A stretch of DNA of 64,000 nucleotides from Candidatus Tayloriibacteriota bacterium (GCA_039934295.1 JBDTMN010000004.1:4840-68839), one strand, 5' to 3'; counted from the first letter of the stretch, positions 24,636 to 53,673 are shown. The notes: generated from the sequence alone by a model not told the origin. A program made the numbers and translations.

Positions 24636-24648
24636 ATTTTTTTGGGTG

Positions 24649-24716
24649 TTATTCCCGCGGAAGCGGGAATCTGGATCCCGCCTCCGCGGGGATGACAGAA
24701 TCAGAATTCTGTCATC
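24649..24716. repeat. Pair of palindromic GGATCC-flanked hairpins plus TGACAGAAT...ATTCTGTCA palindrome
   Basis: TTCCCGCGGAAGCGGGAATCTGGATCCCGCCTCCGCGGGGATGACAGAATCAGAATTCTGTCATC. Confidence 0.6.
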
Positions 24717-25455
24717 TTTTTAGCTCTAAAAGTTTTTGCTCGACCTTCGTGATGTCAAAAAAATTCATACTCAAAATTTTAGCTTCGAGAATTTTGTCGT
24801 ACCCTGTGACGATTGCAATGCCGACTAGGATGAAAATCACCCCTAAAATCCTTTTAAACCAACCTCTTGGGTCCGCGGCAACACCAAGTCGAATCATGAT
24901 TCTTTGCCCCAAAAGAGCAACGAGAAGAAGCATGAGGCAAAGTCCGAGCGTGTACGCCAAGAGGTAAATAATACCGAGAACCGGCTTTTCAGGAAGAACT
25001 GTGGCAAGAACTACAAAGTAAGTGGGACTGCAGGTTGAAAAAACGGGACCCAGGGCGGCGCCGATTATGACGTCTCCCCAAAAATTTTTCTTTTCGTACC
25101 CGACTCCAAGAAGCTTATTCGACTCGCGATTCAATACATTCGTAAAGCTCAATTTTTCCCAAAGAGACGGAAACACGGTGATAACGCCGAGGACGAGGAT
25201 GATGCCCCCAGATATCCATTTCCACGCGGATTCTGGAACTCCAATAAATACTGAACTGGCTTTTAGAAGTAGTGTGAACGCAATGACCGAAAGGCCGAGC
25301 GAGATGGTAACCGTGATTGCGCGCCTTTTTCTTATTTCCTCACCCGCGTCACTGCCTGAAAGCGTACCGCCCAAAATAACAGGAAGAAGTGGCAAGATAC
25401 AGGGCGCAAGAACAGTCAAAACTCCCGCGATGAATGTGATGATAAGTAGGGTCAT
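24712..25455 (-). CDS. ccdA: Cytochrome c-type biogenesis / disulfide-reductant transporter CcdA (DsbD-like)
   Basis: LAPCILPLLP Cys motif in TM1 and a second Cys in FSTCSPTY. About 6 TM segments. Confidence 0.8.
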   Translation of the reverse strand: MTLLIITFIAGVLTVLAPCILPLLPVILGGTLSGSDAGEEIRKRRAITVTISLGLSVIAFTLLLKASSVFIGVPESAWKWISGGIILVLGVITVFPSLWEKLSFTNVLNRESNKLLGVGYEKKNFWGDVIIGAALGPVFSTCSPTYFVVLATVLPEKPVLGIIYLLAYTLGLCLMLLLVALLGQRIMIRLGVAADPRGWFKRILGVIFILVGIAIVTGYDKILEAKILSMNFFDITKVEQKLLELKR

Positions 25456-25518
25456 GATTGCATTATACAGGAAAAAATACTTCTAAAAAACAGCGCTCTG
25501 AAGGTATACGTTTTTTAC

Positions 25519-25567
25519 CTGGATCCCAGCCTCCGCCGGGATGACAAAATACGAATTTTGTCACTTC
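25519..25567. repeat. Degenerate copy of the GGATCCC-GC...GGGATGACAaAAT palindromic element
   Basis: CTGGATCCCAGCCTCCGCCGGGATGACAAAATACGAATTTTGTCAC. Confidence 0.5.
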
Positions 25568-27468
25568 TTATCCTCGTCTTTCTTTTCCTCCTTTACGTCG
25601 GCATCTCTAACGTTGCCTTCGGGAGTAGCACCGCCTTCAGCGCCCGGCGCCGCGCCGGGCGCTCCCTGCGCTTTGCTCATCGCCTCTCCAATTTTAGAAA
25701 GCTCCGTTGAAAGAGCGTCAGTCGCGCTTTTCGTCGCTCCGATATCCGGCCCGTCTTTAACTTTTTTCGTAGCGTCAATTTTTTCTTGGACACTCGCTTT
25801 TATGTCAGCCGACACTTTATCCCCATTATCTTTGAGAGCTTTCTCGGCCGTGTAAATCATTTGCTCGGCGATGTTTCTCGCTTCCGCCTCCTCGCGCTTT
25901 TTCGCATCTTCTCCCGCATGAGCCTCCGCATCTTTTGCCATTCGGTCAATTTCTTCTTTGGAAAGCCCCGAGCGCGCTTCAATCCTGATTGACTGCTCCT
26001 TGCCCGATGATTTATCTTTTGCCTTAACATTCAATATGCCGTTCGCATCAACATCGAAGGTCACTTCAACCTGTGGCATGCCCCGGGGGGAAGGTGGAAT
26101 TCCATCCAAGATAAATCTCCCGAGCGACTTGTTGTCTTTCGCCATCGCCCGCTCTCCCTGCACGATACTTATCTCAACCGAAGTTTGATTATCCGCGGCA
26201 GTGGAAAACACTTGAGATTTAGATGCCGGGATAGTCGTATTTTTTTCGATGAGCTTGGTGTTCACCCCTCCCAACGTTTCAATTCCAAGAGAAAGCGGAA
26301 TGACGTCGAGAAGAAGGATATCCTTCACATCTCCCCTGATGATTCCTCCCTGGATAGCCGCGCCAACTGCCACTACCTCATCGGGATTCACTCCCATGTG
26401 AGGCTCCTTGCCAAAGAAATCTTTCACCGCTCTCTGCATCGCGGGCATTCTCGTCTGTCCTCCGACCAAAATCACTTCGTTAATTTCGGGCTTCTTGAAA
26501 GGCGACGCCTCCATTGCCCTCTTCGTTATCTCCATCGCGCGGTCGATAAATTCCTGACAGAGTTCCTCGAGTTTCGCACGAGTCATTTTGATAAGAAGGT
26601 GTCGAGGACCGGACGCATCGGAAGTAATGAACGGGATGTTGATTTCAGTCTCGACCGCGTTTGAAAGCTCGATTTTCGCTTTTTCCGCTGCTTCGTCGAG
26701 TCGTTGGAGCGCAAGGGTATCTTTCCTCACGTCTATCCCCGACTCCTTTTTGAATTCTTCTCCTATCCAATTTAATATTTTCTGGTCAATATCTTTGCCT
26801 CCGAGGTGTGCGTCGCCATCGGTTGACTTTACTTCAACGACATCGTCTCCGACTTCCAATACAGAGATATCGAAAGTTCCTCCTCCGAAATCGAATACCA
26901 CAATTTTTTCATCTTTCTTCTTGTTGAAGCCATAGGCCAAAGCCGCCGCGGTCGGTTCGTTTATGATACGCTTCACATCCAAGCCCGCAATTTTTCCCGC
27001 GTCTTTTGTAGCCTGCCTTTGAGAGTCGTTGAAATAGGCAGGCACGGTAATCACTGCTTCAGTCACTTTTTCTCCAAGACGGGCCTCCGCGTCGGTTTTG
27101 AGTTTCTGAAGTATCATGGCCGAAATTTCTTCCGGCCGATACCAGTTTTCGCCCATCTTCACCTCAATGCCTCCGTTTGCGGATTTCCTCACTTCAAAAG
27201 GCACGGACGCTTTGTCCTTCTGCACGGCGGGCTCATCGAAGTTGTGTCCGATGAATCTCTTAATCTGATAAATGGTATTTTTCGGATTTGTCACCCCCTG
27301 CCTCTTGGCGAGAACGCCGAAAAGACGCTCTTTCGTTTTTGATTCGGCGACGATGGAAGGCGTAGTCCGCGCTCCCTCGGCGTTTTCCAAAATTTTCGGC
27401 TCGCCAGCTTCCATGACCGCGACCGCCGAGTTGGTTGTTCCTAAGTCGATTCCAATTATTTTTGACAT
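25561..27468 (-). CDS. dnaK: Molecular chaperone DnaK (Hsp70)
   Basis: [28 protein letters not shown]. Full-length 635 aa. Confidence 0.95.
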
Positions 27469-27475
27469 AGATTTT

Positions 27476-27605
27476 TTAGCTTTTAGCTTTTAGGTTTTAG
27501 CTATTAGCTTAAGAGTTACGTTTTAATTCGAATTAAAAAAAGACGCGACATTCTGTGTCTTTTTTCTTAAAAAGCTAATAGCTAGTAGCTAATAGCTTAA
27601 AGCTT
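27476..27605. repeat. Long intercistronic hairpin built from 7-nt period repeats (AGCTTTT/AGCTATT arm vs AGCTAAT/AGCTAGT arm)
   Basis: Left arm TAGCTTTTAGCTTTTAGGTTTTAGCTATTAGCTT. Right arm AAGCTAATAGCTAGTAGCTAATAGCTTAAAGCT. About 45-nt loop. Confidence 0.7.
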
Positions 27606-27919
27606 CCCGCGGGTGCCCTAGTCATTTGACTTATGAAAAAATCAAGCGAAGAAACAAACTCCGAAATGTATGGAGAAATAATAAACTCGTGCTTTTGAGC
27701 TTTACCTTTTGGAGCAGAGAGAAGAAGAATTTCCGGAGAATTTTCTGCAGTTCCTGAAAGAAGAGCAGTTTTTTTGGAGATAATTCTTACAATTCGAGGA
27801 TTCGAAATTTTCACAATTTCCCCCCCTTCTTCTTGCACAATAAAAGCAAGGACCATCTGCACCGCTCCCCTTTCGACAGTTACAAATCTAATATTCTTTT
27901 TTCTCGATATTTCTATCAT
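27575..27919 (-). CDS. Hypothetical protein between grpE and dnaK (C-terminal codons overlap the repeat hairpin, so true extent uncertain)
   Basis: 114-aa ORF with no family recognised. The last about 10 codons are encoded by AGCTAAT repeats. Confidence 0.35.
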   Translation of the reverse strand: MIEISRKKNIRFVTVERGAVQMVLAFIVQEEGGEIVKISNPRIVRIISKKTALLSGTAENSPEILLLSAPKGKAQKHEFIISPYISEFVSSLDFFISQMTRAPAGSFKLLATSY

Positions 27920-27955
27920 ATCTTTCTCCTCATCTTTACCTTACACCTTACACCT

Positions 27956-28594
27956 TTAACCTAACACCTGCTCTTTAAATTCCCCCACTCTCACTTTCGG
28001 CGCCTTCAATACTCTTCCATTCAACGAATACCCTTTTTGTATGACAGATGTCACCACCTGATCCATCTCTTTTTCATCCACTTTTACATATTCTATCGCC
28101 TCGTCCCGCATAGGGTCAAATTTCGAATTGGAGGGGTCAATCTCTTTGAGCCCATTGTCATCTAAAATTTTCTTAAGTTGACTCGCAATATATTCCACTC
28201 CAGTCCGCCAGTTTTTGTCCGCCTTCTCCCAGAGTTCTTTGTTTCCCATCGCCATCCCAAAACTGTCGAGAACAGGAATAAGTTCCGCCAATAAGCCCTC
28301 ATTCGCGAATCTCACAAATTCGGCATTTGCATCCTTATCCCGTTTTCGAGAATTGATGAAATCGGCTTTATCCCTCTGCCAGCCGTCGAGATACTTTTGT
28401 TTTTCTTCCACGCAAATTTTGAGCTTCTCGCGAAGTTTTCCTATGGTCTCTTCCCCTCGTTCTTCCTCCGCGACTACATCTCCATCATCAGACTTCTTCG
28501 ATTGCGGAGTTTTCTTTAAAGGATTCCCTTCTTCATCTGTTGCAATAATATCATCGGCTTCAGCGTTTTGATTTTTTGAATTATCATCTGACAT
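27956..28594 (-). CDS. grpE: Nucleotide exchange factor GrpE
   Basis: Coiled-coil N-terminal part, then a GrpE core. Position upstream of dnaK. Confidence 0.8.
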   Translation of the reverse strand: MSDDNSKNQNAEADDIIATDEEGNPLKKTPQSKKSDDGDVVAEEERGEETIGKLREKLKICVEEKQKYLDGWQRDKADFINSRKRDKDANAEFVRFANEGLLAELIPVLDSFGMAMGNKELWEKADKNWRTGVEYIASQLKKILDDNGLKEIDPSNSKFDPMRDEAIEYVKVDEKEMDQVVTSVIQKGYSLNGRVLKAPKVRVGEFKEQVLG

Positions 28595-28663
28595 TACTTC
28601 TCATTATATATTAATTTCTAATATCATAGCAAAACACCCCCAAGTGAGGTGTTTTGTTTGCCT

Positions 28664-29104
28664 TTATCTCTTAGACCACTGCGGTGCTTTCCTAGCCTTT
28701 TTAAGTCCGAACTTTCGGCGTTCTTTCATGCGGGGGTCGCGTTTCAAATATCCCGCTTTCTTGAGTTTCTTTCGGAGTTCAATATCAAAGAGGAGAAGCG
28801 ACCTTGCAATACCATGTCGCACCGCCTCCGCCTGAGAGTGAATTCCGCCACCTTTCGTCTGAACAGTAATTTCAAATTTTGAATTAATTTTTGTTTTATT
28901 CAGGGGATCTAAAATGATCCTTTGGAGCTCGGGCGTTGGAAAATAGGTAGCCATATCCTTGCCATTAATGAGATACGAAGATTGGGGGACACCCACAGTC
29001 ATACGAACCCTGGCCATTGAAGTTTTGCGTCGCCCAACAGCCTCGAGGTATCTCGATTTTTTCACCTGCGCCTCTTCTTCTGTTTTTTTGATTTCTTTTA
29101 TCAT
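28664..29104 (-). CDS. rpsI: 30S ribosomal protein S9
   Basis: GRRKTSMARV, GGGIHSQAEAVRHGIARSL, C-terminal KKARKAPQWSKR. Confidence 0.9.
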   Translation of the reverse strand: MIKEIKKTEEEAQVKKSRYLEAVGRRKTSMARVRMTVGVPQSSYLINGKDMATYFPTPELQRIILDPLNKTKINSKFEITVQTKGGGIHSQAEAVRHGIARSLLLFDIELRKKLKKAGYLKRDPRMKERRKFGLKKARKAPQWSKR

Positions 29105-29231
29105 ATTTTTTTAATCGTGTAACGTGTAGCTTGTCCTAACCCGTTTGGTCGGACTAGGGTAACCTGTAACGTCTGAGAAAGATCTTTCTTTTTCTTACGT
29201 TACAAGTTGCACGTTTTGCGTTACACGGTCA
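29105..29231. repeat. Imperfect long hairpin of GTAACG-type repeats between rplM and rpsI, centred on the palindrome AGAAAGATCTTTCT
   Basis: CGTGTAACGTGTAGCTTGT ... palindrome ... CTTACGTTACAAGTTGCACG...GCGTTACACGG. Confidence 0.5.
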
Positions 29232-29579
29232 TTAATCCTTAATGACCAGCCTCTTCATCATCCTCGGCCTCAATTTGTTTGACGGAAGCATGCCATACAC
29301 AGCCAATTTAAAAACTTCAGATTTTCCCTTTTTTTCGATGACCGTTTCCATTTTCTCATGCCTCAATCCTCCCGGATAGCCCGAATATTTTGCATAAGTT
29401 TTTTTCGAGACTTTTTTCGGAGAGATTTCAGATTGAGACACATTCACAATTTCCACCATTACGTCCGCCGGAAACGAGTTGCGAACATAAGAAGAAGTGT
29501 TTTTTCCCATGAGAATACTCGCGGCCTCGCTTGCCACTCTTCCCACTTTTTTCTTTTTTGCGTCGAGTATATACTTCAT
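29232..29579 (-). CDS. rplM: 50S ribosomal protein L13
   Basis: MKYILDAKKKKVGRVASEAASILMGK. L13 length and composition. Confidence 0.85.
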   Translation of the reverse strand: MKYILDAKKKKVGRVASEAASILMGKNTSSYVRNSFPADVMVEIVNVSQSEISPKKVSKKTYAKYSGYPGGLRHEKMETVIEKKGKSEVFKLAVYGMLPSNKLRPRMMKRLVIKD

Positions 29580-29670
29580 TTTTTTTCACTGAACTGACTC
29601 GGAACATTCACTCGGAACTAAAGCCGAACTTCTGTGCTTTTCCGTGTGCTTCGTCCGTGTGGCTTCCGTG

Positions 29671-30021
29671 TCATATGAGTTCTATCATCGCCATTTTGCT
29701 CCCATCGCTTACTCTCGAAGGCAGTTTCGTAATCCGGGTATATCCGCCCTTCCTATCTTTATATTTCGGTCCCGTCGTTTCGAATAATTTTTTAACAAGC
29801 GGAGGATGACCAAGACGAGAGGCAACAAGCCGTCGGTTGGAAAGAGTAGCATTTTTCGACTTCGTAATCAATTTTTCAACATATGGCCGGAGCTCCTTCG
29901 CTTTTGCCTCCGAAGTGGTGATTTTCCCCTCTTCAATCAAAGAAGAAGCAAGCGACTGTAAAAGGGCTCGCCTCTGCCCTCTTTCTCGCCCGAATTTTCT
30001 GTTTTTCTTGTGATGCATCAT
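29671..30021 (-). CDS. rplQ: 50S ribosomal protein L17
   Basis: HHKKNRKFGRERGQRRALLQSLASSLIEEGKITTSEAKAKELRPYVEKLIT. Confidence 0.9.
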   Translation of the reverse strand: MMHHKKNRKFGRERGQRRALLQSLASSLIEEGKITTSEAKAKELRPYVEKLITKSKNATLSNRRLVASRLGHPPLVKKLFETTGPKYKDRKGGYTRITKLPSRVSDGSKMAMIELI

Positions 30022-30023
30022 TA

Positions 30024-30100
30024 TAGCTATTAGCTATTAGCTATTAGCTTTTAGCTTAGGGAATTTAATTTCCTATAAGCTAGCAGCTAATAGCTAAAAG
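30024..30100. repeat. Intercistronic long hairpin: (AGCTATT)x4 arm, palindromic loop GGGAATTTAATTTCC, (AGCTAAT)-type arm
   Basis: TAGCTATTAGCTATTAGCTATTAGCTTTTAGCTTA GGGAATTTAATTTCCTA TAAGCTAGCAGCTAATAGCTAAAAGCTA. Confidence 0.75.
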
Positions 30101-31072
30101 CTACTTCAACGTGACTCCAAATTTATTCAACATTTTTTTTATCTCCTGAACGCCTTTTCCCCCTAAGCCGTCAATATCCAGAATATCCTCTTCTTTTTTT
30201 CTTACCAACCCTCCCAAGGTCCGGATATTGGCATTCAGAAGCGCGTTCAATGTTCTTTGTGTCAACTCCAGCGATTCAAGCCTCGTTTTAAGAAATTCCG
30301 GATCAATCTCTTTCTTATCTGCCGAGGCCTCCTCTGTCTCTTTCGTTCTTTCCGTCTCCAAAGGAATGATTACTTCATCTTCTTTAAAACCGATGATGGC
30401 CTTCAGCTGATTTATCATGATTTCCACGGATTTTTCAAATGCCTCTTTTGGTGAAATGGTGCCATCCGTCTCAAGAAAAATTTTCAATTTATTGAAATCA
30501 GTGCGATTACCCACCCGCATATTTTCTACTTCGTAGTTCACCCTTCGTATCGGCGTGAAAATAGCATCAAGACTGATTGCGCCGATCTCCACCCTATCCT
30601 TTTGCAGAAGTTCTTTGGAAATATATCCCAAGCCTCTCTCCACGGTCATCTCGATGTCGACTTCCGTATTTTTTTCGGTAATGGAAAAAAGATGCAGATC
30701 GGGAGTAAGCATTGTCACCTGTCCAGGCACCTTTATGTCTTTTCCGGTTACTTCTTTGACGCCTTTCACTTTGAGCGAGAGCGTCTGGGGTTCATCGGTA
30801 TGCATGGCTATCCTCAACTTTTTTATTTTGAGGAGAATGGTAATGACATCTTCCTTCACTCCTTCCAGAGTCGAGAATTCATGGCTAACCCCTTGGATTT
30901 TAACGGAGGTTACCGCAGACCCCGGGATAGAGGACAGAATAATCCTGCGCAAGGAGTTGCCCAGAGTGTGACCGTAGCCGGGGTAAAGGCCGTCAATCTC
31001 ATACAGTCCCGTGAAATTTTCCTCACGCAAGACTTTTGGCTTGGAAGGCAATAAAACGCTATAATCAGGCAT
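30101..31072 (-). CDS. rpoA: DNA-directed RNA polymerase subunit alpha
   Basis: N-terminal domain with GYGHTLGNSLRRILLSSIPG. C-terminal HhH domain. Confidence 0.9.
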   Translation of the reverse strand: MPDYSVLLPSKPKVLREENFTGLYEIDGLYPGYGHTLGNSLRRIILSSIPGSAVTSVKIQGVSHEFSTLEGVKEDVITILLKIKKLRIAMHTDEPQTLSLKVKGVKEVTGKDIKVPGQVTMLTPDLHLFSITEKNTEVDIEMTVERGLGYISKELLQKDRVEIGAISLDAIFTPIRRVNYEVENMRVGNRTDFNKLKIFLETDGTISPKEAFEKSVEIMINQLKAIIGFKEDEVIIPLETERTKETEEASADKKEIDPEFLKTRLESLELTQRTLNALLNANIRTLGGLVRKKEEDILDIDGLGGKGVQEIKKMLNKFGVTLK

Positions 31073-31086
31073 AGTATTTTTTTAAT

Positions 31087-31166
31087 TAAGCTTTTAGCTT
31101 TCAGCTACTAGCTGTTAGCTTCAAGATGATTATCCTAAAAGCTAATAGCTAACAGCTCATAGCTAC
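31087..31166. repeat. Intercistronic long hairpin of AGCT(N)TT 7-mers between rpsD and rpoA
   Basis: AAGCTTTTAGCTTTCAGCTACTAGCTGTTAGCTT CAAGATGATTATCCTAA AAGCTAATAGCTAACAGCTCATAGCTA. Confidence 0.7.
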
Positions 31167-31777
31167 TATCGTTGATAAAATTGAATAATTGCATTGATAT
31201 CGAATACCGTTTCCCCCGTCCGATAAGCCGGTTTCGCCTCGATGACCGCCTGTCTTTTTTCCAAATCCAATTTGATCCATGGAGGCACAGCAACTTCTTT
31301 GAACTTCTCTCCGACGCCCTCAAACAGCTTCTTTTTTGCACTTGCATCGCGAATAGCAATTATCTCCTTTGGAGAAACTTGATACGAGGGAACAGTCACC
31401 TTTACCCCATCAACCAAAATGTGCCCGTGGGAAACCATCTGTCGCGCCATTTGGCGAGTCGACGCAAGCCCCATCCGATAAATCACGTTATCCAATCTTG
31501 ACTCCAGCATTTCATAAAGCGTATCCACAGCTGGGGTACTCTTTTTTGCGAGCGAGCGTTTGACGTAGGTGCTGAATTGGCGCTCATTGATGCCATACAT
31601 ATATCGAGCTTTTTGTTTCTCGATCATCTGTATTCCATAGTCAGTTTTAGGGCGTCCTTTTCTTTCTCCGCCTTTTCCCCTGCTTGCCATACGGGCAGCA
31701 AATTTGGGAGTCTGAGTCTTATCAAAAATGTTCGCCCCCAACCGCCTTGCTATTTTGTATTTTGGACCAATTTTCAT
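31166..31777 (-). CDS. rpsD: 30S ribosomal protein S4
   Basis: MKIGPKYKIARRLG...; S4 domain VDGVKVTVPSYQVSPKE. Confidence 0.9.
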   Translation of the reverse strand: MKIGPKYKIARRLGANIFDKTQTPKFAARMASRGKGGERKGRPKTDYGIQMIEKQKARYMYGINERQFSTYVKRSLAKKSTPAVDTLYEMLESRLDNVIYRMGLASTRQMARQMVSHGHILVDGVKVTVPSYQVSPKEIIAIRDASAKKKLFEGVGEKFKEVAVPPWIKLDLEKRQAVIEAKPAYRTGETVFDINAIIQFYQR

Positions 31778-31780
31778 AAT

Positions 31781-31868
31781 TAGCTTAAAGCTATTAGCTA
31801 TTAGCTATTAGCTATTAGCTTTTTTGGAATTTTTCCTAAAAGCTAACACCTAACAGCTGACAGCTATT
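31781..31868. repeat. Intercistronic long hairpin, (AGCTATT)x5 arm vs AGCTAACACCTAACAGCTGACAGCTA arm
   Basis: TAGCTTAAAGCTATTAGCTATTAGCTATTAGCTATTAGCTTTTTTGGAATTTTTCCTAAAAGCTAACACCTAACAGCTGACAGCTA. Confidence 0.7.
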
Positions 31869-32302
31869 TATACCCGCCGTGGCTTCTTCGCTTTCGGACC
31901 GTTATACGGAACCGGCGTCATATCGGTAATTTTTGAAATGTTTATGCCTTTCGATATGAACCCGCGAATACCCGACTCTCGTCCCGAGCCCACCCCTTTT
32001 ACGACCACGTCAATTTCCTTTACGCCAAGGTCTTGTGCCTTCAAAGCCAGTGTCTCCCCGACTTTTGCGGCGGCAAACGGAGTGCCTTTTTTTGCCCCCT
32101 TAAAGCCCAATGAGCCGCTCGAAGACCAGGCCAATGCGCCTCCTTTTTTGTCCGTCAAAATGAGCTTGGTATTGTTGTATGTTGACTGAACATACAGGAC
32201 CGCCGAGTCCACTTTACGTTTGGCACCACGGGCTTGAGGCGCGGCAACTTTACCGCCTTCCGTCTTTTCTCCCTCTGTTTTTACGATTCTTTTCTTTCCC
32301 AT
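31868..32302 (-). CDS. rpsK: 30S ribosomal protein S11
   Basis: VLYVQSTYNNTKLILTDKKGGALAWSSSGSLGFKGAKKGTPFAAAKVGE...; C-terminal PVPYNGPKAKKPRRV. Confidence 0.9.
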   Translation of the reverse strand: MGKKRIVKTEGEKTEGGKVAAPQARGAKRKVDSAVLYVQSTYNNTKLILTDKKGGALAWSSSGSLGFKGAKKGTPFAAAKVGETLALKAQDLGVKEIDVVVKGVGSGRESGIRGFISKGINISKITDMTPVPYNGPKAKKPRRV

Positions 32303-32308
32303 AGTAAT

Positions 32309-32390
32309 CAGCTTTTAGCTATTAGCTGTCAGGTGTTAGCTTAAAATCTTTAATTTCCTAAAAGCTAATAGCTAACAGCTTACACCTATT
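32309..32390. repeat. Intercistronic long hairpin (AGCTTTTAGCTATTAGCTGTCAGGTGTTAGCTT arm vs AAGCTAATAGCTAACAGCTTACACCTA arm)
   Basis: Arms are reverse-complementary, including the compensating AGGTGTT / ACACCT variant. Confidence 0.7.
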
Positions 32391-32769
32391 ATTTCTTTTC
32401 AACCGCTTTCCTTCCCGAACCCATGGTCTTCCTTGTATTTCCCCTGACAGTGCGTGAATTGGTCTTCGTCCTCTGTCCTTTGACGGGTAATTTCCGCAAA
32501 TGCCTGATTCCTCGATATGCTTTAATGTCTTTCAGCCTTTTAATATTTCCCGACACCTCTCTTTTCAAGTCTCCTTCGATTTTGTGTTCTTCCATTGCCT
32601 TTCGAATATCGTTTTCTTCCGCAGGAGTGAGTTCCTTTGCCTTTTTCCCCGGCGCGATGTTTGTCTTTTTCAATATCGACAGCGCGCGAGAACGCCCCAC
32701 GCCATAAATTGCGGTCAAGGCTATCTCCAATCTTTTTTCATCCGGCAATGTTATTCCAGCAATTCTCAT
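32389..32769 (-). CDS. rpsM: 30S ribosomal protein S13
   Basis: MRIAGITLPDEKRLEIALTAIYGVGRSRALSIL...YRGIRH. Confidence 0.9.
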   Translation of the reverse strand: MRIAGITLPDEKRLEIALTAIYGVGRSRALSILKKTNIAPGKKAKELTPAEENDIRKAMEEHKIEGDLKREVSGNIKRLKDIKAYRGIRHLRKLPVKGQRTKTNSRTVRGNTRKTMGSGRKAVEKK

Positions 32770-32773
32770 AGTG

Positions 32774-32857
32774 AATAGGTGTTAGGTGTTAGGTGTTAGG
32801 TGTTAGGTGTAAGCATTCGGTTTTACTAAAACCTTACACCTGTCACCTTACACCTGT
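32774..32857. repeat. Intercistronic long hairpin of (AGGTGTT)x5 vs (AACACCT/TACACCT) repeats between rpmJ and rpsM
   Basis: AGGTGTTAGGTGTTAGGTGTTAGGTGTTAGGTGTAAG CATTCGGTTTTACTAAAAC CTTACACCTGTCACCTTACACCTGTTC. Confidence 0.75.
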
Positions 32858-32974
32858 TCAACCCTGTCTCTGCTTATGCCTCGGGTTCGCCTTGCATATC
32901 ACATACACATATCCTTTGCGTCGGACAAGTTTGCAACTGGCGCATACTGTTTTTACGGAAGCTTTTACCCTCAT
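32858..32974 (-). CDS. rpmJ: 50S ribosomal protein L36 (38 aa; absent from the 60-aa-minimum ORF track)
   Basis: Minus-strand translation gives [38 protein letters not shown]. Canonical C-x2-C...C-x4-H zinc ribbon. Located between infA and rpsM as expected. Confidence 0.8.
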
Positions 32975-33030
32975 GCCATGAATTAAAAACTAGGTGTTGT
33001 CAATCCTAATTCTTGGTTTCCCTTATTTAA

Positions 33031-33255
33031 TTAAAGACGCTTCACAATTCTTCCCTTGCCTCCATAAGGGTCAATCTGTACTTTTACCCTATCTCCTATT
33101 AAAACTCGGATTCGATTCATTCTCATCTTTCCCGAAAGATAAGCGAGCGTCTCATTTTCTTGGCCTTCTAATATAACTTTAAACAGGGTATTAGGCAAGG
33201 CCTCGCGAACCACTCCATCGAGGCTTGTGTCTTTTTCCTTCGCATTATGCATCAA
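33031..33255 (-). CDS. infA: Translation initiation factor IF-1
   Basis: S1-like fold: GVVREALPNTLFKVILEGQENETLAYLSGKMRMNRIRVLIGDRVKVQIDPYGGKGRIVKR. Confidence 0.9.
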   Translation of the reverse strand: MMHNAKEKDTSLDGVVREALPNTLFKVILEGQENETLAYLSGKMRMNRIRVLIGDRVKVQIDPYGGKGRIVKRL

Positions 33256-33334
33256 ATTTGTAACGATTTCCTAGCATATCAAGTAACCCTAATTTCGTCA
33301 ATATAGGATAGCCCAAATCCCCCAAGGCTTCCCA

Positions 33335-34666
33335 TTAGCCCTTACTTTCTACAATTTTAATTTTATCAAGTTCTCTCGGAAGTTTCTTTACCCAAAATGG
33401 CTTCAATGTGATTTCAGTTTTGTCAAAAGAGAACTGAGTCTTAAGAATTTCCTCGATTTCATCCAAAGACTTTCCGGAAATCATTTTTCGGAGCTCCAGT
33501 TCTTCATAGCTCCAGACGATACTTGGATTCCCTTTTAAGTTGAAAACAATTTCGTCTTTTTCGATGAGATTGTCCGGCGAAAGAGAGGAAAACACCAACG
33601 CTTGGATGTTCGGTATTTCTATTGCTTTCCCATCAAAATCGGGAATAACCTCTTTTGCGATACTTTTTTCGAGAGCGGTCTTGTTAAATATAATTCCTTG
33701 AAAGTGAGCTTGCTCATTCACCCGTATCGAATTTGGAGCAACTGGATCATTCGGCAAAGATTCAAATTCTATGGAAACGGCGTTATCAAAAAGAATGAAA
33801 TTTTCCGGCATCTCGCTTTGAGCCTCTTGAAAAAGTTCTTTTTGCAGTTCTGTATGAATATCTTTTTTTGCTTGAGTCAAATCTGCCTCCGCTGCAATCT
33901 TTGAGAGTCCGGAAGAACCCTGTGTCATCGCAGTTTTTGAACGAGCAACGATTGTCTTGAATCGGGGATCTCCCTTAAAGCCGGGAATGGTAAAATAAGT
34001 GATCGCGATATTGTACTTTGCTCCGATTGCATCGGCAAATACCGTAACCTCGATGCTTCCGGGAGTTTCGCCTTTTTTAGCGGGTACGGTAATCGGTTCA
34101 GCGATGCGATAAATCAACCCCCCGGAAGTTTCAAAGCGAGTGTTCTTGACCAGAGTCTGTGGCTTAGACTCATTGCTGGAAATAATTATTTTTCCGCTTG
34201 CCTTAGAATCTACCTGTTTTTCTTCTTTCGCTTCTATCACTTTTGACCCAGTTTTTGTCAACGTTATAACATCATAGAAAAGTGAGGTGTCGGTCTTGAC
34301 TTTTACCGCCTTGAAATTCGAATCAAGCGAAGCTTCCACTTTCTTTGGAGTAACTTCCACTGTCGCGCTTCCGAATACGGTAAAAAATGAGAAACCGAGT
34401 ATAAGCAAAGCTACAAGAATGCTCAACCAAAGAAAAAGTCGGGAATGCCTCCTCCTCGGAGGCTCAACAAATTCGGAGACACGCTTTTCCTCAAAGGTAT
34501 GCGGAGATGGAGGTTCATACTGTTCCTGGTTATAAGGTGATCGGCGTGGCAGATCAACCTCAAGAGGAATATCCGAGATCCTTTTTCTCCTATCGGATGG
34601 CAGGGGAATATCTCTTATTGACCTTTTCTCGGGAGGAAGAACATCTTGTAAAATATTTTTTGCCAT
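33335..34666 (-). CDS. Hypothetical bitopic membrane protein (Pro/Arg-rich cytoplasmic N-terminus, one TM, large extracytoplasmic domain); possibly PilN/PilO-like partner of the upstream PilM-like gene
   Basis: TM segment LFLWLSILVALLILGFSFFTVFG. Downstream of and co-oriented with the PilM/FtsA-like gene. Confidence 0.4.
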   Translation of the reverse strand: MAKNILQDVLPPEKRSIRDIPLPSDRRKRISDIPLEVDLPRRSPYNQEQYEPPSPHTFEEKRVSEFVEPPRRRHSRLFLWLSILVALLILGFSFFTVFGSATVEVTPKKVEASLDSNFKAVKVKTDTSLFYDVITLTKTGSKVIEAKEEKQVDSKASGKIIISSNESKPQTLVKNTRFETSGGLIYRIAEPITVPAKKGETPGSIEVTVFADAIGAKYNIAITYFTIPGFKGDPRFKTIVARSKTAMTQGSSGLSKIAAEADLTQAKKDIHTELQKELFQEAQSEMPENFILFDNAVSIEFESLPNDPVAPNSIRVNEQAHFQGIIFNKTALEKSIAKEVIPDFDGKAIEIPNIQALVFSSLSPDNLIEKDEIVFNLKGNPSIVWSYEELELRKMISGKSLDEIEEILKTQFSFDKTEITLKPFWVKKLPRELDKIKIVESKG

Positions 34667-34741
34667 AATTGAATAAACTCGAAATTTGGATTTCGCGCTC
34701 TAATGAAGGTTATTGTATCATAAAATCCATTAAATAGGAAG

Positions 34742-36004
34742 TTATATCGCGCGCTCGCCGAGCTTCTGTATAAACACACTCTCCATTGCAAGAAGTGAGG
34801 CGTTTTCGGCAAATTCACCGATTTTGTAGGAATCCTTAATGAGAGAATCCTGAATCGGCACTATTTTAAACGGCTCGCGGTCTCCTGCAAACTGTTCGAA
34901 TATTTCGTCTTCAATCATCTTGGAAAAGAGCGCTATAAAATCGGAATCCGCCGTTATAAAGAGCGTCTTTGGCAAGAAAAATTCTTCGAAAAAACTCCGA
35001 AGAGATTCGTGAAAATGCGTGACCCAGTCTTTCTTCGAGTTTAAGATTTCCCGAATTTTTTCGGTTACATTCGGCTCCGCCTTTTGAGCTTGGTAGAGGC
35101 GGAGAAACGAAAGCGCCACTTGGGGGACTGTGTTTAGGGACTGGCCAATCTCCCTGATATAAAAACTGGAACCGATGGGAATCGTCACCGTCTCGAGCAA
35201 TAGCCCTTTTTTTATAAGACTGACATCGGTTACTTCCTCCCGGACATCCACAAGAAGAAAATCCGGGGGGGTGTCCTTCAAATCCCTGACCCCAGAAAAC
35301 AGCACGAGCGGGAAAGAGTGGAACTGAATAGACTTGACGTTGAAATTTCTTCTGATGGTCTCTTTGATTTTTTCCGTAAGTTCCACCCCCGCAAAGCTCA
35401 GATAAATCGAGACTTCAATATTTTTAACGGATTGTCCTGTTGGCTGCCAGGTCTCGTAGCCGTTCAATTTCATCCGTATTATTTTGCTCTCGAGAACCTC
35501 GACGCTCTCTTTGAAGTTTTGGGAATACTCGCCCTTAAGGAGCGACTCTTTAAAGACATTTTTTTCGTCTTCGACAATCCTATTCAAAAGCGCGGAGGTG
35601 ATCGTGACCGGCTTTTCTTTTTCGATTTTGATTATCTTTGTCTGGGATATATACCACGGAGAAGAGAGCACGCAATATACGTGCTGTATCGTCTCGCGTC
35701 CATGCTTTGTAAACTTGAGATGTGATAAGCCCTCGTCTTCAAGCGATTTCAAAACTTCCTGGAGAGCTGACCACATGAGGACTTTGGTTCTTTCAATATC
35801 TTTTTCTTCTCCAGCGGGGAGAGATACTCTATGGTTGAAAATTACATACGGGTTTTCCGTTTTTGAGATTTGGAGCAACGCGCCCTCAACATACCCGGAA
35901 CTGAGGTCGAGAATAATTGATATTTCATCGGAGGATTTATTCATGAAGGAAAACATGCAAATAAGTATACCACACTGGGAAAAGCGTGTAACAGAAGGAC
36001 GCAC
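34742..36004 (-). CDS. Actin-fold ATPase, PilM/FtsA-like (likely start MNKSSDE at 35944 or MFSFMNK at 35956)
   Basis: IILDLSSGYVEGALL N-terminal phosphate-1-like motif. FLLVDVREEVTDVSLIKKGLLLETVTIPIGSSFYIREI resembles the PilM/FtsA phosphate-2/adenosine region. Confidence 0.4.
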   Translation of the reverse strand: MRPSVTRFSQCGILICMFSFMNKSSDEISIILDLSSGYVEGALLQISKTENPYVIFNHRVSLPAGEEKDIERTKVLMWSALQEVLKSLEDEGLSHLKFTKHGRETIQHVYCVLSSPWYISQTKIIKIEKEKPVTITSALLNRIVEDEKNVFKESLLKGEYSQNFKESVEVLESKIIRMKLNGYETWQPTGQSVKNIEVSIYLSFAGVELTEKIKETIRRNFNVKSIQFHSFPLVLFSGVRDLKDTPPDFLLVDVREEVTDVSLIKKGLLLETVTIPIGSSFYIREIGQSLNTVPQVALSFLRLYQAQKAEPNVTEKIREILNSKKDWVTHFHESLRSFFEEFFLPKTLFITADSDFIALFSKMIEDEIFEQFAGDREPFKIVPIQDSLIKDSYKIGEFAENASLLAMESVFIQKLGERAI

Positions 36005-36040
36005 CCTCTCTTATGTTACATGTTGTGTGTTACATGCTAT
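35985..36040 (-). promoter_or_regulatory. Promoter of the PilM-like gene with a TGTTACA-box array: two upstream ATGTAACA boxes, a TGTTACA -35-like box, 17 nt, TATACT
   Basis: Minus strand reads ATGTAACAcacaacATGTAACAtaagagagggtgcgtccttcTGTTACAcgcttttcccagtgtggTATACTtatttgcATG. Confidence 0.45.
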
Positions 36041-37851
36041 ATAATGACGGCTTTGATGCGTCTCACCCCCTGCGATACCGCCTCTTCTTTAACGATTTTG
36101 AATTTCCACTTTCCCTCTGCCCCAGCGAGTTCGCTCGTGTTCTTGACATGTGGTCCTCCGCAGAATTCTTTTGAAATTGGATTCCCCTTTTCATCTTCGA
36201 TGAAGTAGACAGAAACCTTGTCGGGATATTTTGCTCCAAACTCCATTTCAGCTCCAAGTTTTTTTGCCTCATCGAGAGACATTTCCCTTCGGACGACAGC
36301 AAGTCTCCTTTGAATCCAGTTGTTTACCGTTTCCTCGACTTTTTTCTTCTCCTCATCGCTAAGTTTTCTTTCAAATGAAAAATCAATCCGAAGTCGCTCC
36401 TCTGTGATATTGCTTCCCCGCTGTTTTACATTTTTCCCTAGAACGCTTTGCAATGCCGCGAGCAAAAGATGGTGAGCCGTGTGAAGCCGGACAGTATGCT
36501 CGTTATGGTCAGCTAACCCTCCTTTAAACTTTTTTTCCGCGCCAGCTCGTGAAAGTTCTTGATGTTTCTTAAAAGCTTCCTCAAATCCCTTAACGTCAAC
36601 TTTTTTCTTTTTTTCTTTGGCGAGCTCGATGGTCATATCGATAGGCAAACCATATGAAGAAAAAAGATTGAATGCGTGTGTTCCCGAGATCACATCTCCT
36701 TTCTCCGAAATCTTTTCAAATTCTTTTATTCCCAGGAGTACTGCTTCAGCAAATTTGGATGATTCTTCCACCAAAACATTCTGTATTCTTTCTTTCATCG
36801 AAACTAGTTCAGGATATGCCTGTTCATACATCGTTGTAAGCGCATCAACGTAAGCAGAAATTCTTTTTTCATCAAGTTTTCTGTCGCTCGTGTTTATTAT
36901 TGCTCTTCGAATTAATCTGCGGAGAATATACCCTCGGTCGGTGTTCGATGGGATTACCCCGTCAGCAATGAGAAAAACGCTCGCTCGAAGATGGTCTGCA
37001 ATAATTCTTTTATTGCGTAGAGTATTGTCCGCTTTTTTCATGAGATCTAAAACTGGCAACAGAAGATCTGTGTCAAATATGTTGTCTTTCCTTTGCATAA
37101 CCATCGCCAACCGCTCAAATCCCGCCCCGGTGTCCACATTCTTCTGCTTGAGTTTGCCGACAATCTTACCTTCAACCTTTTCAAATTCCATGAAGACGTC
37201 GTTCCAAATTTCAACAACTTTCTGTTCTTCGTCAGCTTTCGCAAACGCTTCCGGAGACAAGTCGCCCAATCCTTCCTCTGTTATGTCATAAAACATTTCC
37301 GAGCAGGGACCGCTTGGACCTGTCCAGTCATCTTTACCTTTCACGGCCGGCCACCAATTACTCGATGCATCTTTGAAATAAATCCTATTTTTTGGAATTC
37401 CAGCTTCCTCCCAGATTTTTGCCGATTCAATATCCTTTTCAGCATTTTTGTCGCCCGCAAAAACGGTAATATACAGGCGTTTCGGATCAAGTCCAAGTCC
37501 TTCTTTTTTTTCCGTCAAAAATTCATAGCTCCAAGTGATTGCTTCTTTTTTGAAATAGTCGCCAAGTGACCAGTTGCCGAGCATCTCAAAAAAAGTCCCG
37601 TGCGTCTTATCTCCAACATCATCAATATCAATCGTGCGCAGGCATTTCTGAACACCTGCGATCCGTCTTCCTTTCGGATGAGGTTTGCCCAACAAATACG
37701 GAATAAGAGGCTGCATTCCTGCAGTATTAAAAAGAGTAGGATTTGTAATACCCTTTTCATCAGTTGTGACAAGGGAAGCAGAAGAAATAATCGCATGCCC
37801 GCGCTTGCGAAAAAATTCGAGGAATCTCTCGCGGATTTCGGAGGAGTTCAT
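36037..37851 (-). CDS. alaS: Alanyl-tRNA synthetase, short form (604 aa: catalytic, tRNA-recognition and editing domains; no C-Ala domain)
   Basis: FNTAGMQPL, FFEMLGNWSLGDYFKKEAI, editing-site HTAHHLLLAALQ. Confidence 0.9.
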   Translation of the reverse strand: MNSSEIRERFLEFFRKRGHAIISSASLVTTDEKGITNPTLFNTAGMQPLIPYLLGKPHPKGRRIAGVQKCLRTIDIDDVGDKTHGTFFEMLGNWSLGDYFKKEAITWSYEFLTEKKEGLGLDPKRLYITVFAGDKNAEKDIESAKIWEEAGIPKNRIYFKDASSNWWPAVKGKDDWTGPSGPCSEMFYDITEEGLGDLSPEAFAKADEEQKVVEIWNDVFMEFEKVEGKIVGKLKQKNVDTGAGFERLAMVMQRKDNIFDTDLLLPVLDLMKKADNTLRNKRIIADHLRASVFLIADGVIPSNTDRGYILRRLIRRAIINTSDRKLDEKRISAYVDALTTMYEQAYPELVSMKERIQNVLVEESSKFAEAVLLGIKEFEKISEKGDVISGTHAFNLFSSYGLPIDMTIELAKEKKKKVDVKGFEEAFKKHQELSRAGAEKKFKGGLADHNEHTVRLHTAHHLLLAALQSVLGKNVKQRGSNITEERLRIDFSFERKLSDEEKKKVEETVNNWIQRRLAVVRREMSLDEAKKLGAEMEFGAKYPDKVSVYFIEDEKGNPISKEFCGGPHVKNTSELAGAEGKWKFKIVKEEAVSQGVRRIKAVII

Positions 37852-37929
37852 ACAGAAAGTGTAGCAGAAATGCGCGACATTTCAACGATTTGCATGAGAG
37901 TAAATACTGTGATATAGTACATTTAGCTT

Positions 37930-38346
37930 ATGAACGCCATTATGAAAAGTTCGTCGCCAAAACGACGCAGTCATCTGGAGAGCAACATTAAGGGTCGGAG
38001 AATGGAGAGTCTTTTTGAAAAGCTGACGAGAGAGCTCATGGCGGGAGGACGACTTTTGCCATGGATAGCTCGCCTCGATAGAGCAAATCCTAATGAAGAT
38101 TTGTACGAGGGTACGGATTTCAAAATCAAAGCCATCAAAGAAAACGGAGAAGGCAAATCGTTTTTCACGATACGGATCGATGTCAAAAGCTCTGAATGGC
38201 AAGTCGGAATATTCCAGAGCGAACATCCTGACTCAAGGGTGCATGCAATCAGAATCGACTGGTCTACAACTCTCGAAGATGTGAGAGTGATGCTGGATGG
38301 AATCTATCTCCAAGTTCTTCCAAAGCCCCCTCCGCAAACAGCCTGA
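37930..38346 (+). CDS. Hypothetical protein
   Basis: 138-aa ORF on the plus strand between alaS and atpC. No family recognised. Possible start at MESLFEKL. Confidence 0.35.
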   Translation: MNAIMKSSSPKRRSHLESNIKGRRMESLFEKLTRELMAGGRLLPWIARLDRANPNEDLYEGTDFKIKAIKENGEGKSFFTIRIDVKSSEWQVGIFQSEHPDSRVHAIRIDWSTTLEDVRVMLDGIYLQVLPKPPPQTA

Positions 38347-38529
38347 ACGATCCGGCTGTTTTTTTATATCTATAATTGATTAACACTGGATGGTAATCAT
38401 TCCAGTGTGATGCAATTTATTTCCTTTATTTTTTCGAGTGCCACTTGTCCTCCTTCGCATGGCTTCGGCCGTCGGCTCGACGAAGTCAGCCTTTGGCCAG
38501 ACGCAGTCGGCGGGACAAGTCGGCAATGC

Positions 38530-38973
38530 CTATCTTCTATACTTTTTTGATTTCCATTTATCAGCAATTCTTACTCGAGTCAGACTTCGTTCTAGTTCGG
38601 ACTCAAAGTGTTCATAGTCAACGTGTTCTTTATTTTCCATTTTCTTTTTGAGTTCCGAGGCACGTGCTTTTGCTTTTTCAATTTCGACGAGAGATATAGA
38701 CGATACATGTTCGGCAAAATCCGCAAGAACTGCAACTTGAGTCGTGTTGTCTTCCCCATTTTTGACCTCCACAAATCCCCCTGCAACTGCAAAAGGCACC
38801 GGCTCCCCGTTTGCAACCGCCACGATATCTCCCGAGGACAGTCCGACGATAATCGGAATGTGATTCGGCAAAATGGTTATTTCACCTTCGGATGCAGGCA
38901 AAGTAACCTGATCCACCATTTCTTCCAAAATGAGCTTTTCAGGAGTGATGATTTTGAGATTGAGTTGGGGCAT
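38530..38973 (-). CDS. atpC: F1 ATP synthase subunit epsilon
   Basis: MPQLNLKIITPEKLILEEMVDQVTLPASEGEITILPNHIPIIVGLSSGDI...; beta-sandwich plus helical hairpin. Confidence 0.85.
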   Translation of the reverse strand: MPQLNLKIITPEKLILEEMVDQVTLPASEGEITILPNHIPIIVGLSSGDIVAVANGEPVPFAVAGGFVEVKNGEDNTTQVAVLADFAEHVSSISLVEIEKAKARASELKKKMENKEHVDYEHFESELERSLTRVRIADKWKSKKYRR

Positions 38974-39018
38974 TGGGATAGCTGTTAGGTGTTAGGTGTT
39001 AGGTGTTAGTTTGAAAAT

Positions 39019-39231
39019 TTACTTTTCAAAATTCTCTCGGGAAAGTTTTGACTGCCGCAAAATAGAGCTAAATGTGCCAGACGGAATTTGTTTTCTATTT
39101 GCGGGTACGATAACAGTGAGCTTTCTTACAATGTGAAAAAATTTCGCGTGACTTCCTTTTTGTGACACAAACGCAAAGCCTTTATTCTCAAGAACTTTTA
39201 CGATTTCACGTGATGAAAACAGTTTAGGCAT
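39019..39231 (-). CDS. hicA: HicA-family toxin (mRNA interferase)
   Basis: SREIVKVLENKGFAFVSQKGSHAKFFH...TVIVPANRKQIPSGTFSSILRQSKL matches the HicA/YcfA pattern (KxxEIIKxLEKxGF..RQKGSH...H...TVP.H..KEL..GT...IL). Confidence 0.7.
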   Translation of the reverse strand: MPKLFSSREIVKVLENKGFAFVSQKGSHAKFFHIVRKLTVIVPANRKQIPSGTFSSILRQSKLSRENFEK

Positions 39232-39442
39232 GCTGAAAAGAGGTTTCCGCGAGAGAAAGCGAGGTAACCTCGGGGATTGAAGGAGTTTTTATGTCTTCAA
39301 AATAAAGCTCGATAGCTTCTTTGATATTAGCGAGAGCTTCTTTGCGCGTCTTGCCAAAACTTGAAATATCAACGTTAAGGCACTGGGCAACATAAAACTT
39401 TCCTTCTTTCCAAACGACATTTTTTAGTCGGACTGTTTTCAT
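39224..39442 (-). CDS. hicB: HicB-family antitoxin
   Basis: 72 aa: VWKEGKFYVAQCLNVDISSFGKTRKEALANIKEAIELYFED. HicB/UPF0150 RNase-H-like fold pattern. Overlaps hicA by 8 nt. Confidence 0.6.
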   Translation of the reverse strand: MKTVRLKNVVWKEGKFYVAQCLNVDISSFGKTRKEALANIKEAIELYFEDIKTPSIPEVTSLSLAETSFQHA

Positions 39443-39483
39443 ATTTCAATACTACAAAAAAAGTGTCGGCAAATCAAGCGACC

Positions 39484-39561
39484 CAAAGAGATATCCTGAT
39501 CCACCATTTCTTCCAAAATGAGGCGTTCAGGAGTGATGATTTTTAAGTTGAGTTGAGGCAT
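39484..39561 (-). pseudogene. Duplicated 5' fragment of atpC (start codon plus about 22 codons) upstream of hicB
   Basis: 39495-39561 matches 38908-38973 at about 90% identity. Encodes MPQLNLKIITPERLILEEMVDQ then diverges with no long ORF. Confidence 0.5.
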
Positions 39562-39581
39562 TTGAAGATAGCTGTTAGCTA

Positions 39582-39794: not shown

Positions 39795-39890
39795 GTCTTC
39801 CTAACACCTAAAACCTCACAGCTAACACCTGCCTTAAGAGCTCCTTTCCATTCCTCGTCCGTCGCGGACTCGTCAGGACGCGGGTATTGA

Positions 39891-41240
<1,350 letters not shown>

Positions 41241-41295
41241 TTATTGAATAATTATGTTTCTCGGCTTTTAACTTTACACTTTATACTTTACACTT

Positions 41296-53625: not shown

Positions 53626-53673
53626 TCACGGGAAAAACTGGGAATCATTTTTTCTTACGATATTCGTTATACG

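Follow-up and report, generated by a model that had tools for sequence, protein, structure and literature searches.

The ribosomal-protein/rpoA block and its spacers

A 64,000-nt stretch of DNA from a Candidatus Tayloriibacteriota bacterium (GCA_039934295.1 JBDTMN010000004.1:4840-68839), hereafter the window, carries a block of ribosomal-protein genes and rpoA in which nearly every intercistronic spacer holds a long hairpin with arms of tandem 7-nt units. The host belongs to Candidatus Taylorbacteria (Parcubacteria/Patescibacteria, Candidate Phyla Radiation (CPR)), as its RpoA (30101-31072) is 100% identical to a protein so named from a metagenome-assembled genome (MAG) at NCBI. Pfam identification placed all genes of the block on the minus strand. 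Transcription order starts with infA (33255-33031) and continues with rpmJ (32974-32858), rpsM (32769-32389), rpsK (32302-31868), rpsD (31777-31166), rpoA (31072-30101), rplQ (30021-29671), rplM (29579-29232), rpsI (29104-28664), grpE (28594-27956) and dnaK (27468-25561), with an open reading frame (ORF) of 114 aa (27919-27575) between the last two. An independent Logan assembly of a read set showed 100% identity across 29175-32805 and reproduced four hairpins exactly, indicating that the hairpins are no artefact; its contig stops within two of the repeats, as is typical of short-read assemblers. An assembly artefact was ruled out by this identity and by a like architecture in >15 MAGs of different studies.

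Stems were searched with and without gaps, scoring G·U and A·C alike, and RNA folding of the transcribed (minus) strand was compared with 200 dinucleotide shuffles. The original prediction, made from the sequence alone, had described six spacers as long hairpins of heptamer units and the rplM-rpsI spacer as a long hairpin of a different kind, and both descriptions hold. The stems comprise 26-39 Watson-Crick pairs each (26-33 in five ribosomal-protein spacers, 39 in rplM-rpsI). Folding energies range from -29.7 to -42.5 kcal/mol (z -4.4 to -7.7) and 0 of the 200 shuffles was equally stable. The arms are 7-nt periodic, with period-7 rows of 3.3-5.3 copies per arm in Tandem Repeats Finder (TRF), far beyond chance. 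AGCTNNNAGCTNNNAGCT occurs 19 times in the window where 0.02 occurrences are expected.

Most of these hairpins, all on the minus strand, belong to one AGCT/AGGT family, of which ~9 full or partial copies lie within the window. The rpmJ-rpsM hairpin (32770-32860; 32 Watson-Crick pairs, z -6.14) has AGGTGTT/AACACCT units in both arms. The rpsM-rpsK hairpin (32301-32389) combines AGCT units with unmatched AGGT/ACCT units, and its stem base brings together the rpsM stop and the rpsK start. In the rpsK-rpsD hairpin (31778-31870; 32 pairs, z -7.66) one arm is a perfect (AGCTATT)x4.6 array and the opposite arm a heterogeneous mix of AGCT/ACCT units, which looks like recent slippage in one arm only. 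The rpsD-rpoA hairpin (31073-31165; AGCT family, 26 pairs) is orthologous in sequence to a hairpin in a relative (L003:1-81), the window copy having one additional unit in each arm. The rpoA-rplQ hairpin (30022-30103; AGCT family, 32 pairs, z -4.78) includes the rpoA stop TAG as part of its last heptamer unit. Alignment of five AGCT/AGGT hairpins of the window with the L003 orthologue gave 72% mean column identity and a TTTTAGGAAA motif on the 5' side of the loop. The hairpin between dnaK and the 114-aa ORF (27476-27605; z -4.83) has AGCT-family arms at 27478-27510 and 27572-27604, and its loop encloses an inner terminator-like hairpin at about 27535-27566. The rplM-rpsI hairpin (29105-29231; z -7.72) is a composite in which CGTGTAACG/GTAACGT-type arms surround two inner hairpins. 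In the 64 kb of genome seen, the elements form several families of 75-100 nt. In the rplQ-rplM spacer (29580-29670) no convincing hairpin was found (z -2.2). This spacer is expanded as well (91 nt), with a ~12-13-nt period (TGTGCTTCGTCCG x2.6) unlike that of the neighbouring spacers.

Coding sequences are overlapped at their ends by heptamer arrays. AGCT units include the stops of both rpoA and rpsD (30101-30103 and 31166-31168), and the last residues of the 114-aa ORF (…KLLATSY*) are encoded by the array at 27575-27604, which may have extended or redefined the end of this ORF; the homologue in the relative L001 has 102 aa. A search of 25000-42000 against Rfam at E up to 1 gave no family at its gathering threshold; the only matches, chance ones to hairpins of eukaryotic miRNA precursors, scored 29.9-40.7 bits where the thresholds are 68-95.

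Heptamer hairpins in relatives and elsewhere in the window

The comparison covered the operon in three close relatives, with RpoA identities of 79-84%, and in 80 species genomes of GTDB, with RpoA identities of 63-79%; these loci are designated by L-numbers, and junction lengths were scored over the eight junctions infA...rpsI. In the window 8 strict arrays of period 7 were found versus 0 for each of the periods 4-6 and 8-12, and all loci together yielded 20 versus at most 2 for any other period. Autocorrelation within the arms of 199 long hairpins from 81 sources has its maxima at lag 7 (0.352) and lag 14 (0.329), with ~0.27 at other lags, and the intergenic autocorrelation at lag 7 is 0.324 versus about 0.275.

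Spacer lengths in infA...rpsI are bimodal: 1-30 nt in most genomes, and about 75-130 nt at nearly all junctions in a subset. Junctions are expanded in 7/8 cases in the window, 3/3 in L003, 3/4 in L004, 8/8 in L015, 7/8 in L007, and 8/8 in each of L018, L032, L033, L036 and L037. In a tree of RpoA, L17 and L13 the trait is clustered yet patchy, being partially present elsewhere as well, and the window groups with L003, L004 and L001. Within this group empty sites occur: the rpsK-rpsD spacer of L004 measures 11 nt, and the rplQ-rplM and rplM-rpsI spacers of L001 measure 12 nt and 1 nt.

Several unit families are common to a number of genomes, in which they are located in non-orthologous spacers. 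The AGCT family was found in the window and in L003, L051, L063, L073, L033 and L018, and the CGTGTAACG family of the rplM-rpsI spacer also in L033, L036 and L073. Further families are TAGGCNC/CTAGAGCC (L018, L032), GCGGTTAGCG/CTAAACGC (L033, L036, L037, L003) and CGAAATCCGAAAT (L015, L037, L056, L023). A ~100-nt AATAACTGAAT...ATTCAGTTAT element is present in three copies in L036 and also in L023, L007 and L004; its loop is conserved between the L036 and L023 copies. Elements or genes are nested within loops in the window (27476-27605 and 39567-39830) and in L015. Multiple similar copies thus stand at non-orthologous sites with presence/absence polymorphism, as in MITEs (miniature inverted-repeat transposable elements), and placement is intergenic with variation of length and sequence at the same junction, as in heptamer simple sequence repeats (SSRs). 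Families shared between genomes but located in non-orthologous spacers indicate that these elements act as dispersed repeats and not as vertically conserved regulatory RNA.

Other repeats occupy the same niches. A ~165-nt GC-rich composite repeat with two strong hairpins, TGGCTCGGCCCGCAGTTTCGGGATTCAG...GATGATTTTCAAAAACTCGCGGACTCGTTAAGAAAATCAATC, forms a second, non-heptamer family in several ribosomal-protein spacers of L032, L033 and L073 (e.g. L033:8502-8665 and 10970-11137). In the rpsD-rpoA spacers of L018, L032, L033, L036 and L073 a conserved ...TAGGTTATTATGTTTT...GGGAACGATTGAGT... stretch, with nothing comparable in the window, replaces the heptamer hairpin; it is possibly an internal promoter plus leader motif for rpoA. 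A metagenome scan for (TAGCTNN)x4 returned at least 120 loci (L085-L204). Among the matches listed, (TAGCTNN)n contigs range in GC from 0.30 to 0.68, are mostly not CPR-like and include several inverted pairs. The arrays listed are widespread in soil, peat and freshwater and reach ~20 units; high-GC contigs with long (TAGCTCT)n/(AGAGCTA)n hairpins (e.g. L128, L126, L098) are also among them.

Elsewhere in the window, heptamer hairpins were detected by TRF and the hairpin search at 152-258 (unit TAACATG/ACATGTA, no strand assigned), 8560-8680 (CAGATTA/TAATCTG, minus strand) and 18903-18969 (GATTCAT/ATGAATC, no strand assigned). A TTGACTT array with a short complementary partner lies at 41561-41620 (minus strand), and a hairpin of AACTTGT/ACATGTA units with a diverged partner arm at 54316-54405 (no strand assigned), with a similar one at 53596-53680. 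By eye, about 13/18 arrays of the window are paired into hairpins. Solitary arrays are the AGGTGTT-type array without partner arm at the junction of the grpE 3' end and the 114-aa ORF (27938-27969, minus strand), (AAGTAAA)x6.6 at 51833-51878 (no strand assigned), and those at 41265-41302 and 61089-61120. Their existence implies that 7-nt slippage acts also without a hairpin.

Of the four places given as single arms or partial copies in the original prediction, the one near 27938 is indeed solitary. Those at 38975-39010 and 39565-39600 proved to be two copies of one 3' arm, and the fourth (39795-39826) covers its partner 5' arm. The atpD-atpC junction carries an element of the AGGT/AGCT family (39567-39830, minus strand) with its 5' arm at 39800-39830 and its 3' arm at 39567-39597, so that a 70-aa ORF (39582-39794, minus strand) is bracketed by the arms, as had been noted, and occupies the loop. 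This ORF has an AGGAAG Shine-Dalgarno-like motif, rare in the genome, and no Pfam match; the counterpart of the junction in L001 measures 76 nt and has no ORF. The second copy of the 3' arm (38979-39009, minus strand) lies directly upstream of atpC. A direct duplication of ~105 nt (39484-39592 and 38899-39002, ~86% identical) takes in the heptamer arm together with ~70 nt from the start of atpC. Between the duplicates, just upstream of atpC, a HicB-like (DUF7387)/HicA toxin-antitoxin cassette (39442-39019) is inserted, leaving a truncated atpC 5' pseudo-copy. The arm was duplicated along with the atpC 5' end through insertion of the HicAB cassette.

Another palindromic family, (G)TCATTCCCGCGAAGGCGGGAATCCAGA...TCCCGC...GGGAATGAC, is found once in the window (24647-24697) and in at least four copies around grpE/dnaK/dnaJ in L001 (12360-12440, 13150-13213, 13600-13670 and 15800-15870). 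Between alaS and infA, the minus strand at 33335-36004 encodes two large proteins of 443 and 420 aa without a convincing Pfam domain, one of them with a sub-threshold Baseplate_J match; counterparts of 408 and 439 aa are found at the same position in L001 (5163-7741).

Probable origin of the hairpins and possible selection at the RNA level

The spacers are best explained, with a probability of roughly 0.55, as the sites of small non-coding palindromic elements of about 75-100 nt that resemble repetitive extragenic palindromic (REP) sequences and MITEs and have heptanucleotide-microsatellite arms. Replication slippage in steps of 7 nt would expand and homogenise the units within one arm, and inverted duplication or dispersal of whole elements would carry them into gene junctions, where they may also replace each other. 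Strand switching would perhaps be aided by the palindromic tetranucleotide cores of units (AGCT, CTAG, ACGT, TCGA, AATT, CATG). Such cores, and stop codons in all frames, were considered as a hallmark of the units and rejected: they are frequent, not clearly above composition in a rough count, and several families are without them. Mismatches every 7 nt were likewise dropped as a general rule, as they are found in the TAGGC and GCGGTTAGCG families but not for the hairpins as a whole (0.341 vs 0.322 random). DNA-uptake sequences and CRISPR or tandem interspaced guide RNA (TIGR) arrays do not fit, as there are many unrelated units per genome and no spacer-repeat arrays.

The placement of the hairpins suggests why they could be tolerated. 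Situated between co-directional genes, they are presumably transcribed in the polycistronic mRNA. The median distance from the stop codon to the stem is 3 nt and that from the stem to the following start 7.5 nt, the left flank being shorter than the right in 39 hairpins and longer in 9; the stems have a median of 27 Watson-Crick pairs (selection criterion >=16) and loops with a median of 4.5 nt. G is scarce in the 3' arms and the right flanks (0.12). In the window and L001-L084, Shine-Dalgarno motifs before the infA...rpsI genes are scarce, with 19/367 in compact spacers (5%) and 2/152 in expanded spacers (1%), and leaders are A/U-rich with 2-8% G at positions -1 to -8. We infer that looping-out of the inserted RNA by a self-contained hairpin is what lets the elements persist in these tight operons. 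With the insert folded, the distance between stop and start would be about 10 nt, as it is in insert-free relatives, and the A/U-rich initiation region would stay free of pairing with the insert. The mRNA is likely to be affected in secondary ways, which might consist of a barrier to 3'-exonucleases, double-strand-specific cleavage, or a reinforced translational coupling in which the terminating ribosome would open the stem base.

The arms themselves offer few signs of selection for pairing. The original prediction had stated that the two arms co-vary, and had taken this as selection for the hairpin. The statement is partly true: co-variation is complete only in the rpmJ-rpsM hairpin. In the rpsK-rpsD and rpsM-rpsK hairpins isolated AGGTGTT/ACACCT units oppose AGCT units to give G·G or C·C mismatches. 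Families of heptamer hairpins are shared across genomes, and compensatory pairs within them are few. The AGCT family has 4/22, all from the single fully converted element, the GCGGTTAGCG family 1/20 and the TAGGC family 0/22; in family alignments most pairs do not vary, pairing falls on the invariant cores, and the unit position that varies has no partner. For heptamer hairpins the ratio of sense-strand G·U to A·C mismatches is 62:45 (p = 0.12); overall it is 317:300. Selection for the hairpin is weakly supported by co-variation. Folding energy of the sense and antisense strand did not differ over 52 operon hairpins, and the orientation of the arms relative to transcription is uninformative, since the two strands of an inverted repeat read alike.

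A number of observations weigh against an origin by slippage and dispersal alone. The 35 heptamer hairpins are slightly stabler in the sense strand (23:12, -1.65 kcal/mol, p = 0.03; marginal). In hairpin-rich genomes heptamer hairpins were found at 35/261 co-directional versus 3/72 divergent or convergent junctions (p = 0.03), and two of the latter three are artefacts of crude gene calls. Both the co-directional enrichment and the sense-strand bias fit a role at the RNA level. Complementarity between arms amounts to ~85% of aligned pairs, versus a unit-to-unit identity within arms of ~0.5-0.8, which indicates that pairing is better kept than periodicity. One seven-genome clade (71-85% protein identity) is fully expanded while the element family per junction differs, and such constant occupancy with sequence turnover in streamlined genomes argues for a selected hairpin and not for mere tolerance. 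Slippage and dispersal also leave period 7 unexplained. Finally, mobility is deduced from distribution only, as neither a transposase, a REP-associated tyrosine transposase (RAYT) gene nor a target-site duplication was found. No transposase or RAYT was seen among the 20 window ORFs scanned against Pfam, and no insertion sequence in the DNA examined. No direct repeat flanks the hairpins when filled and empty spacers are compared by eye (L004 and L001 versus the window, L003 and L033).

An alternative, which we consider rather unlikely, is that the hairpins are selected intercistronic mRNA elements, serving as RNase III-type processing sites in double-stranded RNA and/or as barriers to 3'-exonucleases. 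The long transcript would be cut into stable monocistronic pieces, or a differential stability would be set, by analogy with phage T7 early mRNAs, the REP stabilisers of Escherichia coli and the Correia elements of Neisseria. Predicted stems of 26-39 Watson-Crick pairs with few mismatches exceed the double-stranded run of about 20 bp that an RNase III substrate would require, and on these fold models RNase III cleavage is structurally plausible. The stem and loop lengths, the near confinement to co-directional junctions, the near-100% occupancy of one clade's junctions while the sequences turn over, and the slightly greater sense-strand stability of the heptamer class all favour this explanation, as does the description in PMC2649163 of Correia elements being bound or cleaved by RNase III. 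Against it, most related genomes manage without hairpins, compensatory changes inside families are few and the G·U versus A·C asymmetry is not significant; an rnc search with an E. coli query gave no match in ~1.4 Mb of partial loci and is uninformative.

Improbable to a further degree is the explanation of the hairpins as translational-coupling devices for an organism without Shine-Dalgarno motifs. The G/U-rich 5' arm would mask the A/C-rich, G-poor 3' arm and the leader of the next gene, and a ribosome that ends translation at the stem base, where the stop codon lies, would melt the lower stem and expose the downstream initiation region, resulting in 1:1 synthesis. The distances of the stem to stop and start, the base composition of 3' arms and right flanks and the lack of Shine-Dalgarno motifs in the clade agree with this, and in Beggiatoaceae it has been suggested that heptamer direct repeats just upstream of start codons regulate translation (PMC4679880). 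However, the start codon lies outside the stem, relatives couple with 1-20-nt spacers and no hairpin, and the same elements also hold genes or other hairpins in their loops or stand as solitary arms. The placement is equally expected if insertions survive only inside a very short ancestral spacer.

It is very unlikely that the heptamer units form a binding-site array for a putative protein that reads single-stranded RNA or DNA in 7-nt steps, with the hairpin as an open/closed switch. Proteins with a cold-shock domain would be candidates, as would one similar to HutP that reads (U)AG-N4 repeats; the HutP site has the form (UAG-N4)x3. TAG (or NAG) indeed recurs every 7 nt in many 5' arms (TAGCTNN, TAGGTGT, TAGGCNC, TTAGCGG), the period is specific, and CspB binds heptamer repeats with one protein per unit (reviewed in PMC4679880). 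Many unrelated unit families per genome, including A/T-only units without TAG, stand against it; no candidate protein was identified, and the TAG content is not clearly above chance for A/T-rich heptamers. Transcription terminators or attenuators, which the original prediction had also proposed, are highly improbable. A stable GC-containing stem in every spacer speaks for them. Against them, no U-tract (T run) follows the stems, the terminator scan gave none in hairpin spacers and a total equal to shuffles, promoter-like sites numbered 9 versus 8.9 expected with none in hairpin spacers, and termination after every ribosomal-protein gene without spacer promoters would silence the operon.

Related repeats and meaning for Taylorbacteria

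Intergenic heptamer arrays, also as inverted pairs, are already known in bacteria. An excess of heptameric repeats in bacterial intergenic regions is attributed in PMC4692102 to Mrazek 2007. Xanthomonas genomes each contain 70-75 inverted pairs of intergenic GGGAATC arrays (PMC4692102), and PMC4679880 describes STRR repeats of Calothrix/Nostoc as well as arrays of TAACTGA that immediately precede start codons in Beggiatoaceae, cyanobacteria and Bacteroidetes. The original prediction that the feature is not a standard one thus applies to annotation, in which no Rfam family covers it; heptamer excess and inverted pairs have been published (PMC4692102, PMC4679880). A literature search yielded no account of such elements in CPR bacteria. 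To our knowledge no function has been established for any of the published heptamer arrays.

Like the STRR, Xanthomonas GGGAATC, Nostoc GGGGA(C/T)T and TAACTGA repeats, the elements described here consist of tandem 7-nt units in about 2-7 copies, are strongly intergenic with period 7 in excess, and differ in length and sequence from one relative to another at a given junction. With the Xanthomonas arrays they share frequent convergent (inverted) pairs that can fold into stem-loops (PMC4692102), and the AATAACTGAAT... family resembles TAACTGA. In contrast to those repeats each genome has many unit families where those have one dominant unit, most arrays have a partner with which they form a hairpin, nearly every core-operon spacer of a streamlined CPR genome is filled, arms-plus-loop elements recur dispersed, and there is no G-quadruplex potential. 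New are the many families per genome, almost always paired into ~90-nt hairpins, their saturation of core-operon spacers in particular CPR subclades, and their behaviour as dispersed elements.

REP sequences and bacterial interspersed mosaic elements (BIMEs) of enterobacteria and pseudomonads are likewise short imperfect extragenic palindromes, often between co-transcribed genes, that form mRNA hairpins and occur in many dispersed copies without target duplication. REPs can have a stabilising effect on the mRNA upstream, and those no more than about 15 nt from a stop codon lower translation of the upstream gene. Unlike the elements described here, REPs measure about 35 nt, fall into one or a few conserved families per species, are not heptamer-periodic and are RAYT-linked. 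In phage T7 early mRNA a hairpin lies in each intercistronic gap of a long polycistronic transcript. The RNase III sites of T7 are conserved and non-repetitive with a characteristic internal loop, unlike the present elements, which are known from sequence alone. Correia elements and other MITEs (ERIC, RUP, BOX) share with them the form of about 100-nt inverted repeats beside genes with which they are co-transcribed. Correia elements yield long RNA hairpins, described in PMC2649163 as bound or cleaved by RNase III, and show presence/absence differences between relatives as well. They differ in that their terminal inverted repeat is defined, their core is conserved and they come with a TA target duplication, whereas the present elements show no target duplication and have microsatellite-like arms.

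The elements have practical consequences: palindromic repeats break short-read assemblies, and arrays that supply stop codons and lengthen ORFs can mislead gene callers. For the biology of these bacteria they matter in other ways. CPR/Patescibacteria have some of the most streamlined genomes, yet some Taylorbacteria carry about 90-nt hairpins at nearly all junctions of their top-expressed operons. Sister lineages keep spacers of 1-30 nt, which provides a clean natural contrast between a selfish or slippage by-product and operon-internal RNA control, and the elements bear on the translation of internal cistrons in a clade without Shine-Dalgarno motifs. It is possible, if doubtful, that a long hairpin between all co-transcribed genes is itself selected in several Taylorbacteria subclades. 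If so, the hairpin would be a module that any self-complementary heptamer array can supply, so that families turn over with occupancy near 100%. The stop and start on either side of the stem base would then organise termination-reinitiation, or segmental mRNA processing and stability, without Shine-Dalgarno-led initiation, and the 7-nt register might be read by a putative RNA-binding factor.

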